Positions 14,745-19,226 of a DNA stretch of 64,000 bases are shown here, piece by piece. The position numbers were made by a program, and so were the translations under genes. Location: contig CBFGIY010000001.1 of assembly GCA_965648935.1 (NCBI GenBank), positions 40,216 through 104,215 on the forward strand, in the 5' to 3' direction. The notes below the pieces were generated by a model. That model saw only the letters and a list, made by a program, of their open reading frames with translations, made no database searches and was not told the origin of the DNA. The DNA is from a candidate division WOR-3 bacterium. GTDB taxonomy: Bacteria; Hydrothermota; Tepidihabitantia; Tepidihabitantales; Tepidihabitantaceae. Position 1 is the first letter of the stretch. Each line of letters starts with the position of its first letter.

Positions 14745-15929
14745 GTGGACCTGTTCGATAAATGCCGTCAGTTCGACATGATGCTCGGCTTCGTCCGCGC
14801 CCAGGGCCGGTTCTTCTACGGCCGCGACCTCGAGCCCGCGGCGTCGCCGGTCACGACCCGCGCCGGCCGCGAGCTCGTCAACCTCGGCTCCAACAACTAC
14901 CTCGGCCTGACCGACGACCCGAAGGTGAAAGCCGCGGCCATCGCCGCAGTCGAGCGCTACGGCACCGGCTCGGCCGGCTCGCGCCTGCTCACCGGCACCA
15001 CGCCCCTGCACCTCGAGATGGAGCGGCGCCTCGCCGAGTTCAAGCACGCCGACTCGGTCGTCTCGTTCTCGGCCGGGTTCATGGCGCTTTCGGCCACGGT
15101 TGCGACCCTCGCCGGCGAAAACGACCTCATCTTCTCCGACGAGCTCAACCACGCCTCGATAATCGACGGCTGCCGCCACTCCCGCGCGAAGACTGTTGTC
15201 TACCGGCACAATGACCTCGCCGACCTCGAATCAAAGCTCAAGGCCGCGCCGCCCGACGCGGCCCGGCTCATCGTCACCGACGGCGTCTTCTCGATGGAGG
15301 GCGACATCTGCGAGCTTCCCGGCCTGCACAAGCTGTCCCAGGCCCACAACTGCCGGCTGATGGTCGATGACGCCCACGCGACCGGCGTGCTCGGCCCGAC
15401 CGGCCGCGGCACGGCCGAGCACTTCGGGCTCGAGGGCAAAGTCGACATCACCTCGGGCACGCTCTCCAAGTCGATGGCCGCGGTCGGCGGGTTCACCGCC
15501 GCGCCGCGCACGGTGACCGACTACCTGCGATACAACGCCCGGATGTCCATCTTCTCGGCCAGCCTGCCGCCGTCCGTGCCCGCGACCGTGCTCGCCGCGC
15601 TCGAAGTGCTGTCGTCCGAACCCGGGCGCGTGGCGCGGCTCCACGCCAACTCGCGCTTCATCGCCGGGAGGCTCGTCGCCGACGGGTTCAAAACCGCCTA
15701 CCGCGGCACGCCGATACTGCCCATATACATCGGCGACGACGACAAGGCTTACCAGATGGCCGGCCGGCTCGAGCAGGAGGGCGTCTTTGCCAACCCGGTC
15801 GTGTACCCGGCCGTGCCCCGCGGCTCAGCCATCATCCGCATCAGCCTGATGGCGACGCACACCGAGGAACAGCTCGGCCGCGCCGCCGACAAGTTCCGGC
15901 TCGTCGGCCGGGAACTGGGGGTCATCTAG
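14745..15929 (+). CDS. Alpha-oxoamine synthase, serine-palmitoyltransferase-like (PLP-dependent; BioF/KBL/SPT/CqsA family)
   Basis: PLP-lysine block GTLSKSMAAVGGF, which is closest to the SPT TFSKSxGxxGGF. Also shows the AOS fold motifs NNYLGL, SGFMAL and DDAHATG. Confidence 0.8.
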   Translation: MDLFDKCRQFDMMLGFVRAQGRFFYGRDLEPAASPVTTRAGRELVNLGSNNYLGLTDDPKVKAAAIAAVERYGTGSAGSRLLTGTTPLHLEMERRLAEFKHADSVVSFSAGFMALSATVATLAGENDLIFSDELNHASIIDGCRHSRAKTVVYRHNDLADLESKLKAAPPDAARLIVTDGVFSMEGDICELPGLHKLSQAHNCRLMVDDAHATGVLGPTGRGTAEHFGLEGKVDITSGTLSKSMAAVGGFTAAPRTVTDYLRYNARMSIFSASLPPSVPATVLAALEVLSSEPGRVARLHANSRFIAGRLVADGFKTAYRGTPILPIYIGDDDKAYQMAGRLEQEGVFANPVVYPAVPRGSAIIRISLMATHTEEQLGRAADKFRLVGRELGVI

Positions 15930-17726
15930 ATGCCCGACACCATCTACCAGGCTTTCGCCGAGGTCGCCCGGCGCCACGCCGCGCGTCCCGCGCTGATGAA
16001 CAAGGTCGAGGGGCGCTACGTGCCGGTCAGCTACGCCGACCTCGCGCGCACGGTGGACGAGGTCGCGGCCGGACTGGCCGCGCGCGGCGTCAGGGTCGGG
16101 GACCGCGTCGGCATATACTCCTACAACCGGCCCGAATGGGTCGTCACAGACCTCGCCGTGGCCAAGCTCGGCGCGGTGCTCATCCCGGTCTACCACACCC
16201 TGCCCGAGGACGCGGTGCGCTACATCCTCAACGACGCCAGGGTCAGCCACCTCGTGGTCGAATCGCCCGACCTGTTCGCCGTGGTCGCGCGGGTGATGGC
16301 CGCGGTGCCGGACCTGACCGATGTCATCACGCTGTTCGCGCACGACCAGACCAGCCATACGGGCAAGTCCCTGTTCTCGTTCGAGCTGCTCCGGGCCGAA
16401 GGTGCCCGGGCGCTCGCCGCCGACCCCGGCCTGGCCATGGCGCACGAGCCGGGCCCGGACGACCTGTTCACGGTCTGCTACACCTCGGGCACGACCGGCG
16501 AGCCCAAGGGCGCGATGCTCACCCACCGCAACATCCTCTCCAATGTCATCTCCGGCGCGGCGCGGTTCGACATCAACGAGCGCGACGTCTTCGTGTCCTT
16601 CCTGCCGCTCTGCCATATGTTCGAGCGCACCTGCGGCTACTACACCGTGCTGCTCGTCGGCGGCTGCATCGCCTACGCCGAATCGACCCAGACCGTCGCC
16701 CGCGACGTCCAGGCCGTGAGGCCGACCGTGCTCATCGTCGTGCCCCGCGTGCTCGAAAAGGTGTACAACGTCGTGCGCGAGCGCGTGCTCACCGGCCCGG
16801 CCTGGAAGCGCTGGCTGATGGTCGAGTCACTGCGCGTCTACGGCCGCCACCACCGCCTCAAGTCGCGCAACCAGCCGATACCGTTCGGGCTCAGGCTCTC
16901 CCACTGGCTGCTCGGCCGGCTCGTCGTCAGAAAGCTCCACGCGCTGGCCGGCGGCCGGCTGCGCTACCTCGTGTCCGGCGGCGCGCCCCTGGACAAGCGG
17001 CTCGGCCGCATCCTGCGCAGCCTCGAGTTCAACATCTACGAGGGCTACGGCCTGACCGAGACCTCGCCCGTGGTCTGCTCGATGATGCCCGGCGACGAGC
17101 GCATCGGCACGGTCGGCAAGCCGATGGAGGACGTCGAGATACGCATCGGCCCCGACTCGGAAATCCTCGTCCGCGGCCCCAACGTGATGAAGGGCTACCT
17201 CAACAAGCCCGACGAGACCGCCAGGGTCATCGACGCCGACGGCTGGTTCCACACCGGCGACCAGGGCCGGTTTGACGAGCGCGGCAACCTCGTCATCACC
17301 GGCCGCATCAAGGAGCTCATCGTCAACTCCTACGGCAAGAACATCGCCCCGGTGCCGATCGAGCAGAAGCTCGCCTCGTCCGAGTACATCGAACAGGCGA
17401 TGGTCTATGGCGACCGCAAGCCCTTTCTTTCCGCGCTCATCGTGCCATCGCGCATCGTGCTCGAGGAGTGGTGCCGCGGCCAGGGCATCGACTGCGCCGA
17501 CTTCTCGCGCGCGCTCGACGAACCCCGCGTCGTCGCGCTCTACCGCGCCGAGGTGGAAAGCGCGCTCAAGGACTTCGCCCAGTACGAACAGGTCAAGGCT
17601 TTCCGGCTCATCCCCGAACCGTTCACGGTCGAAAACGGCCTCCTGACCCCGTCGTTCAAGCTGCGCCGGCCCCAGGTCTATGAAGCCTACAAGGAAGCGA
17701 TCGAGAAGCTCTACGAAGGACATTGA
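15930..17726 (+). CDS. Long-chain fatty-acid--CoA ligase (AMP-dependent synthetase)
   Basis: AMP-binding motif [18 protein letters not shown], plus the GYGLTE and GWFHTGD motifs. It is about 600 aa, FadD15-like. Its ATG immediately follows the AOS stop. Confidence 0.85.
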   Translation: [598 protein letters not shown]

Positions 17727-17729
17727 GCA

Positions 17730-18503: not shown

Positions 18504-18506
18504 CCC

Positions 18507-19226
18507 GTGCTCGCGGTCCTCTGCGCCGCGCTTGCCGCGCTCGGCCCGGCCGACTCGCTCGCCGCACAGGGCCGCTGGTACCTTGACCATCGCCACCTCG
18601 ACCGGTCCTGGCTTGATTCGGCCGCCGCACTCGCGGCCCGGGCCCGCGCTCTGGACCGCTTCGCCGAGGCCGCGGTCGCGCTCGACTGCGATGTCCGGCT
18701 GAACCGCGGGCTGGACACATCCGGCAGACCTGAACGGCTCATCGTGTTCCGCGCGATGCAGGCGCTTGCCGACTCGATGCGCTCGGCCCGGCCCGAAAGC
18801 CCGGTCGGCCACTTCCAGTGGGCCACGGCCACCGCCCAGATCGGCCTTGCCCAGCGCAACCTCGCCGCGCTCCAGGCCATCCCGGCCGTGCGCCGCGCCT
18901 ATGCCCGCGCGCTCGAACTCCAGCCCGCTCACGTCGGCGCGCTCTACGGTTTGGCCATGCTCTGGGCCGGCCCGCCGCGGATTGCCGGCGGCGCCCCAGA
19001 GCGAGCCGACAGCCTCCTCTCAGTAGCCATCGCGCTCGACCCGCGCCTGACAATGCTGCGCGTCGAGCGCGCCCGTCTGCTCATCGCGGCGAAACGCCGC
19101 GCCGAAGCGCGAGTCGAACTAGGAGCGGTGATGCGCGAAACCAGCCCGAGTGTTCCGTCGGCCTACTGGCTGAACGACCGGCATACCGCAGAGAAGCTGC
19201 TGGAGGAATTGGAGCAGGCCCGGTGA
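18507..19226 (+). CDS. Secreted helical-repeat (TPR-like) protein, paralog B
   Basis: Tandem paralog of 17730..18503, with clear collinear similarity. It starts 3 nt after paralog A. Confidence 0.55.
   Translation: MLAVLCAALAALGPADSLAAQGRWYLDHRHLDRSWLDSAAALAARARALDRFAEAAVALDCDVRLNRGLDTSGRPERLIVFRAMQALADSMRSARPESPVGHFQWATATAQIGLAQRNLAALQAIPAVRRAYARALELQPAHVGALYGLAMLWAGPPRIAGGAPERADSLLSVAIALDPRLTMLRVERARLLIAAKRRAEARVELGAVMRETSPSVPSAYWLNDRHTAEKLLEELEQAR

Follow-up and report, generated by a model that had tools for sequence, protein, structure and literature searches.

The DNA analysed here is a stretch of 64,000 nucleotides from a candidate division WOR-3 bacterium (contig CBFGIY010000001.1, positions 40,216 to 104,215), called the window below, and its subject is a group of four genes on the forward strand. 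The first gene encodes an alpha-oxoamine synthase (AOS; 14745–15929, 394 aa, GTG start) and the second an acyl-CoA synthetase (ACS; 15930–17726, 598 aa, ATG start). The third and fourth encode TPR1 (17730–18503, 257 aa, GTG start), predicted to be a secreted, all-helical protein, and its paralogue TPR2 (18507–19226, 239 aa, GTG start), also predicted to be secreted. The intergenic spacings are 0, 3 and 3 nt, with the ACS start codon abutting the AOS stop codon. A sigma70-like promoter with 10 of 12 matches, TTGCCT-16-TATAAT (14680–14707, forward strand), lies 37 nt upstream of the AOS start, and a Shine-Dalgarno sequence, GGGAGG, stands 5 nt upstream of the AOS GTG. Two sigma70-like sites were found in this region, compared with 0.3 ± 0.6 in shuffled sequences, and the G+C content is even across 14–22 kb (0.675–0.708). 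The coordinates, the short gaps, the promoter-like site and the signal-like N-termini of the last two products all agree with a single four-gene unit, as the original prediction for this DNA had proposed. The unit is not a chance juxtaposition, because its order recurs in dozens of independent contigs.

Conservation was scored by tblastn in about 70 WOR-3 contigs, collected from GTDB genomes, from metagenomes scanned with the TPR alignment as seed and through exact matches to proteins; the set is partly redundant (for example, L131/L136 and L116/L117). For both the TPR protein and the AOS, the closest relatives came from metagenome-assembled genomes (MAGs) of candidate division WOR-3. Of 61 evaluable loci, 59 had the ACS directly before the TPR gene, while in only 30 of 40 was the ACS itself directly preceded by the AOS. 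The 10 loci without the AOS include L109, L129, L131, L132, L135 and L140, and most of the 10 had about 6 kb of upstream sequence. Where the AOS was present it was always directly upstream of the ACS and in the same direction, with a gap of 11 nt or less in about 12 loci (judged from the ends of the tblastn matches), and the AOS-ACS-TPR order was kept in WOR-3 relatives at 70–87% AOS identity. Genes beyond the conserved block each occurred in at most five loci, indicating that the block is bounded. The invariant core is the ACS-TPR pair, not the AOS-ACS pair.

The tandem arrangement of two TPR genes is much more restricted. TPR1 is the common WOR-3 form and most loci have a single TPR gene, while proteins of the TPR2 type are scarce, with 6 clusters among 5.8 billion proteins. 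A tandem TPR1-TPR2 with the same 3-nt gap was also present in L168, L169 and L170, and in L001 and L167 the TPR2 type stands alone behind the ACS. Since the tandem is confined to near relatives and single copies are found elsewhere, the pair reflects a duplication within a narrow sublineage, after which either copy can be the sole survivor. The conservation of gene order in relatives, which had been put forward as a check, was thus seen for ACS-TPR and, in three quarters of loci, for the AOS, and extended to the TPR pair only in the nearest relatives.

The ACS matched the Pfam families AMP-binding (E 1.4e-86) and AMP-binding_C_3 (E 2.6e-11), as expected for the ANL superfamily. Its translation carries a P-loop-like TSGTTGxPKG motif and a 26-residue block that we take to be the fatty-acyl-CoA-synthetase signature. 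The nearest NCBIfam relatives were FadD11 and long-chain ligases, all scoring under their cut-offs (319 against 950 for FadD11), and the solved structures were distant (135 bits or less). These features agree with the FadD-type assignment made originally, and the predicted product is a long-chain fatty-acid–CoA ligase of this type. There is no room for an acyl carrier protein (ACP) gene within the operon and none was seen nearby; the ACS product is therefore probably an acyl-CoA, and the earlier remark that the locus lacks an ACP and is not a textbook pathway holds. In a survey of 181 WOR-3 MAGs, an acyl-CoA synthetase was present in all and a complete beta-oxidation pathway in only six (PMC12542636), which argues that the ligase mostly serves an anabolic or scavenging role rather than a catabolic one.

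TPR1 and TPR2 share 33% identity over 208 aa (E 1e-32). Both have hydrophobic, signal-like N-termini, as do 59 of 61 family members, so that their description as paralogous, signal-peptide-bearing helical proteins proved sound. The typical N-terminus of the family, MKKLLLLA...AGA, reads heuristically as a signal peptidase I type, and a heuristic search for a lipobox gave a similar motif in only 3 of 61 members. Pfam returned weak TPR matches for both proteins, and no database record was found for the exact TPR1 sequence. TPR1 was modelled with AlphaFold on an alignment of 61 sequences; the model had a pLDDT of 93.5 and 13 helices, and showed the compact helical TPR fold of the TatT type, which is also like the fold of BstC. 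The top Foldseek match of the model was the TPR domain of PTPIP51/RMDN3 (7cc7, E 6.9e-7), a eukaryotic mitochondrial phospholipid-transfer protein; with 15–17% identity, this is a shared fold, not orthology. In the PDB, the best natural sequence found with the TPR-family profile was Es_TatT (E 1e-8), the remaining matches being mostly designed or generic TPR proteins, and some TPR homologues carry precomputed Pfam matches to PF16811 or PF21033 (TatT, RMD1-3).

The modelled fold places TPR1 and TPR2 in the TatT/BstC/RMD1-3 structural group of TPR proteins. The earlier statement that they have no recognisable family is thereby superseded, and the comparison with lipid-binding folds that had been suggested did match lipid-carrier folds. 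TatT proteins bind long-chain fatty acids, BstC binds sterols, and the partners of about 25% of TatTs are not TRAP components (PMC11713862). No genes for TRAP P, Q or M components were found in the annotated neighbourhoods of the WOR-3 loci, and no RND partner is present. Distant TPR homologues (30–43% identity, L146–L166) were not beside an ACS. Their neighbours, judged by eye, include a Lon-like protease, TldD, an MFS transporter, a glycosyltransferase and a nitroreductase, and gave no hint to function.

The AOS belongs to the Pfam family Aminotran_1_2 (E 3.5e-57). Its pyridoxal-phosphate lysine motif, GTLSKSMAAVGGF, includes GTLSKS, with the lysine at residue 242; SKS is the form found in Spt, whereas BioF-context sequences have SKA and E. 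coli Kbl and BioF have G-K-A/G. The best NCBIfam model was SerpalmtaseCFB, at 438.8 bits against a cut-off of 640, a cut-off also missed by Spts of other phyla that are validated by context (508–566 bits). Scores were lower for the KBL models NF005394 (398.4, cut-off 460) and TIGR01822 (346, cut-off 493), for TIGR01825 (392), for bioF TIGR00858 (389.7, cut-off 426.45) and for CqsA NF005526 (193.9, cut-off 428), so that the AOS lies below every curated NCBIfam cut-off. Among solved structures, the Sphingobacterium multivorum SPT (SmSPT) matched best, at 345.7 bits, and the Thermus BioF/KBL enzyme came second, at 317 bits, with CqsA structures at only about 106 bits. Assignments as CqsA, cysteate acyltransferase or ALAS were rejected on score, and of the original suggestion of an SPT or CqsA family only the Spt half is retained. 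When the AOS was compared with the list of SmSPT active-site residues (PMC10196870), N, Y, A-G-S-R, H, S, D, H, T and S were found to be kept, with departures at F83, which is L, and M271, which is I.

The position of the AOS was examined in a neighbour-joining tree of 88 sequences and 367 columns with 100 bootstraps. The WOR-3 clade had 100% support and was sister to the bCerS-linked Spt clade in 94 of 100 bootstraps (83 of 100 in a first run). WOR-3 sequences never grouped with the Thermus BioF/KBL enzyme, and BioF-context sequences fell outside WOR-3 plus Spt. The closest AOS from outside WOR-3 was that of the Methylomirabilota locus L009, at 52% identity. A bCerS homologue adjoined the AOS in 62 of the 69 closest non-WOR-3 loci, nearly always immediately downstream, and many of these loci also have an SDR. 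In the Myxococcus locus L021 the AOS is followed by a GNAT gene and an SDR gene, confirming the canonical Spt-bCerS-CerR order. (The Spt open reading frame (ORF) listed there, 9995–11533, runs about 119 aa past the AOS domain before bCerS; this could be an extension at the C-terminus or could stem from the way the ORFs were listed.) Among the control loci, bioA was found in L063, L076, L078, L085 and at E. coli bioF, and tdh at E. coli kbl; unlike in the controls L063, L076, L078, L085 and L086, none of bioA, bioB, bioD or tdh adjoins the WOR-3 AOS. The AOS is, from its scores, motif and tree position, Spt-like and a distinct WOR-3-specific sister lineage outside the bCerS-linked Spt clade. 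An SPT-like rather than BioF/KBL-like enzyme was what had been predicted, and the profile and phylogenetic placement proposed at that time gave no clustering with BioF or KBL, the sequences being sister to the bCerS-linked Spts rather than inside them.

Downstream of TPR2 lies a rubrerythrin gene (19311–19814, forward strand), whose ORF opens at 19236 and whose probable ATG at 19311 stands behind an AAGGAG site. Of the 32 loci with at least 3 kb of downstream sequence, the set to which all counts out of 32 refer, 12 had rubrerythrin no more than 400 nt from the TPR gene, and among all 70 loci it was found in 33. It often follows the TPR gene but is dispensable, and it also occurs in L081/L109, where there is no AOS. 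An 11-bp G+C-rich hairpin (19832–19857), with a T-run on its minus-strand side, separates it from a convergent operon on the reverse strand. The first gene of this operon encodes a xylose-isomerase-like TIM barrel (AP_endonuc_2; 21152–22066, 304 aa, in 22 of 32 loci), the next an extended SDR of the 3beta-HSD/HpnA/CerR-like group (20192–21151, 319 aa, in 17 of 32) and the last a 106-aa protein (19875–20195, in 23 of 32). The latter has a weak likeness to the N-terminal half of ImmA/IrrE-type zincin folds, lacks HExxH, and matched no family when used in a family search.

The SDR begins with the Rossmann motif MRALVTGASGFIG and has no signal peptide. It is of the NDUFA9/3beta-HSD type and shares 38% identity with the gene in the CerR position in Myxococcus. 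The family is very large, with 1271 representatives at E ≤ 1e-30 in the SDR search, and of the 150 best of these just 3 had at least 50% identity to a CerR defined by context. On the scale of that search, the Spt/bCerS-linked SDR of the Methylomirabilota locus L009 scored 221 bits and would rank about fourth among 1.84 billion representatives, and the SDRs of L015, L012 and L027 scored 188–194 bits. Outside WOR-3, the nearest relatives of the window SDR and AOS are the SDR and Spt of L009, which suggests that the two WOR-3 genes share an origin. In the Methylomirabilota loci L009–L015 the genes lie on one strand in the order radical SAM, alpha/beta hydrolase, SDR, Spt, bCerS. The WOR-3 SDR is a plausible candidate for the 3-keto-lipid reductase of the pathway. 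The original prediction had counted a ketosphinganine reductase as missing; a CerR-like candidate does lie 1 kb downstream of the four genes, though its presence does not track that of the AOS. Use of the SDR and TIM genes as proof of a full Spt pathway was rejected for the same lack of co-variation.

Other features of the window flank these two operons. A promoter-like site at 14636–14609 diverges from that of the AOS and faces the TM1266/hydG operon, which is part of a complete [FeFe]-hydrogenase maturation cluster on the reverse strand (8748–14455) comprising a radical-SAM HydE-like gene, HydF, an aspartate-ammonia-lyase-like gene, HydG and a TM1266-type regulator. On the other side, the stretch at about 22068–29700 has a G+C content of 0.60–0.63, compared with about 0.68–0.70, and contains a nucleotidyltransferase gene (25429–25752) and a sigma54-dependent response regulator gene (25783–27138). 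It separates the TIM gene from genes for an 836-aa esterase/S9 protein and a GHMP kinase, which in the relatives L084 and L167 follow the TIM gene after about 0.5–3 kb with one or two genes between; the stretch is probably an insertion. PlsY, the acyl-phosphate:glycerol-3-phosphate acyltransferase, is encoded at 4823–5425 on the reverse strand. A 547-aa protein with a C-terminal GNAT domain is encoded 43 kb from the operon (62222–63865, reverse strand) and showed no bCerS homology by tblastn.

We propose that the core pair consists of a cytoplasmic long-chain fatty-acid–CoA ligase and a TPR protein of the TatT superfamily that is exported by Sec and soluble in the periplasm. The TPR protein would bind long-chain fatty acid in its free form, or some lipid much like it, and deliver it to the inner membrane, where the ACS would trap it as acyl-CoA by vectorial acylation of the FadD type; the neighbourhood has no gene for a dedicated inner-membrane transporter. 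We infer both this ligand and the inward direction of transport. In the sublineage of the window, the AOS may then join the acyl-CoA to a small amino acid, of which L-serine is the likeliest, and so form a 3-keto long-chain base, which the CerR-like SDR of the convergent operon may reduce; our choice of acyl and amino-acid substrates for the AOS, and the part given to the SDR, are likewise a reading of family and context. As bCerS was not found in the window or in the WOR-3 loci, the pathway may end not in a canonical ceramide but in a long-chain base that is free or modified in some unconventional way. For the whole chain, in which periplasmic fatty acid is captured by the TPR protein, activated by the ACS and used here by the Spt-like AOS, we judge the chances to be evenly balanced.

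Transport could instead run outward, with the TPR proteins acting as chaperones that carry an AOS-derived lipid from the inner to the outer membrane and the ACS only supplying acyl-CoA. The matching fold of BstC, which is part of a putative sterol export system (PMC11713862), makes this conceivable, as do the abutting AOS, ACS and TPR genes in one operon, the duplication of the carrier in the AOS-bearing sublineage and the fact that no transporter of bacterial sphingolipids is known (PMC11087976). Yet the TPR gene follows the ACS in nearly every locus, including those such as L109 and L129 that have no AOS beside the pair. With the ACS constant and the AOS variable, the constant partner of the TPR protein is a consumer of free fatty acid and not the maker of the base, so that capture of fatty acid is favoured over carriage of the AOS product and we regard export as unlikely. 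The original proposal that the paralogues carry the product of the pathway is therefore kept for the lipid-carrier fold and set aside for the cargo.

The genes could also be coupled more loosely than we propose. In that case the ACS and TPR protein would scavenge fatty acid for phospholipid synthesis, and the AOS, which might make some other alpha-amino ketone, would be an unrelated neighbour, like rubrerythrin and the SDR-TIM genes. Each of the AOS, rubrerythrin and SDR genes varies around the constant ACS-TPR pair, the SDR does not follow the AOS, the window encodes PlsY, and the ACS is universal in WOR-3 (PMC12542636), all of which would fit. Such an arrangement does not readily account for an AOS that is always immediately upstream and co-directional, closely spaced in about 12 loci and retained at 70–87% AOS identity, or for the ACS being the sole acyl-activating enzyme nearby, and we think it doubtful. 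More mundane still would be a housekeeping AOS, that is a BioF, a KBL or a dual BioF/KBL enzyme, served by an ACS that makes pimeloyl-CoA or another short acyl-CoA. The KBL, TIGR01825 and bioF models do score just 40–50 bits under the Spt model, and the Thermus BioF/KBL enzyme is the second-best PDB match. However, the cut-offs of the bioF, KBL and TIGR01825 models are all missed, the biotin and threonine genes of the controls do not adjoin the AOS, the tree keeps the WOR-3 sequences apart from the Thermus and BioF-context enzymes, the motif is SKS rather than SKA, and the ACS is a 598-aa protein of long-chain type. A housekeeping role is thus very improbable.

Several observations weigh against the capture, activation and condensation scheme itself. 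The margin of the Spt model over the best non-Spt model is +40 bits for the AOS, compared with +104 to +148 for the context-validated Spts and −75 for a BioF, and the bCerS-linked Spt clade, which includes SmSPT, was monophyletic with WOR-3 left out in 100 of 100 bootstraps; serine as the substrate is therefore not assured. The tree is a neighbour-joining one, and its sample is skewed to the best matches. No tblastn match to bCerS was obtained with the Myxococcus query in the 64-kb window or in any of the WOR-3 loci, and the SDR occurred without the AOS in 8 loci, together with it in 6, and was missing beside the AOS in 11. On the side of the carrier, the TPR family is not composed of lipoproteins, unlike TatT and BstC, and the match of TPR1 to the Pfam TatT family PF16811 was insignificant (E 0.025, 14.4 bits, cut-off 26.5). 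Neither the ligand (sterol or fatty acid) nor the direction (import or export) of a TatT-superfamily protein can be read from its sequence (PMC11713862). No outer-membrane channel of the FadL type was seen nearby, and the functions assigned here are predictions from sequence and models.

The proposed scheme has partial precedents. The Spt-bCerS-CerR cluster of Caulobacter, Myxococcus and Bacteroidota (PMC11087976) shares with the WOR-3 locus a GT[FL]SKS AOS, SmSPT-like residues and a nearby SDR. It differs in that the window and the other WOR-3 loci have no bCerS and an AOS that is sister to the Spt clade. Moreover, the SDR is encoded on the strand opposite to the AOS, occurs without regard to it and lacks a signal peptide, whereas Caulobacter CerR is periplasmic. 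In Rhodobacteria, Spt is clustered with a dedicated acyl-activating enzyme, the acyl-ACP synthetase AasR, which provides its thioester substrate, and with AcpR (PMC11324152). The likeness to WOR-3 is one of arrangement, and with no ACP here the activated substrate is probably acyl-CoA, as for the Spts of Bacteroidota.

For the TPR proteins, the comparators in fold are the TatT/TPAT fatty-acid system (T. pallidum Tp0956 and Enhygromyxa salina TatT, 8g52) and BstC (7t1s; PMC11713862); apart from lacking the lipid anchor, the WOR-3 proteins differ in having neither TRAP P/Q/M nor RND partners and in being paired with a cytoplasmic ACS. The FadL-FadD system of E. coli offers a parallel for uptake driven by the cytoplasmic, FadD-type thioesterification of a fatty acid. 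That system is not known to have a periplasmic carrier, and the WOR-3 locus differs from it in placing the ligase beside a gene for a secreted binding protein, with no FadL homologue seen nearby.

All of the parts of the WOR-3 locus come from known families, and it is their combination that is new: an AOS clade that is sister to Spt and lacks bCerS, a soluble TatT-like carrier that almost always has an ACS for a partner in place of TRAP, and a lineage-specific duplication of that carrier. This gene arrangement was not seen in the bacterial sphingolipid clusters compared or in the literature searched, and a literature search gave no description of a TatT-ACS pairing. The claim that a serine-derived lipid module has not been described in such anaerobes needs correction, since predictions of Spt-like genes already cover about 40 phyla of anaerobes (PMC11334938); WOR-3 is not mentioned in that Black Sea study, nor was it found together with 'serine palmitoyltransferase' in a literature search. 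A bolder extension, which we advance tentatively and think improbable, is that WOR-3 makes a non-canonical long-chain-base lipid with its own Spt sister-clade enzyme and without bCerS, that its soluble TatT-like proteins, which have no TRAP partners, are the first periplasmic carriers dedicated to a bacterial sphingoid pathway, either for supply or for export, and that TPR1 and TPR2 may divide fatty acid and base between them.

The locus bears on three problems. Bacterial sphingolipids have no known transporter (PMC11087976), and the transit of fatty acids and sphingoid lipids through the periplasm of diderm bacteria becomes testable here with a few soluble proteins, as does the role of those TatT-superfamily proteins that work without TRAP transporters (PMC11713862). 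The substrate preference of the Spt sister clade could show how serine palmitoyltransferase arose from BioF/KBL-like ancestors. For WOR-3 itself, the pairing with a secreted carrier would give a role to the acyl-CoA synthetase that is present in every genome, mostly in the absence of beta-oxidation (PMC12542636).

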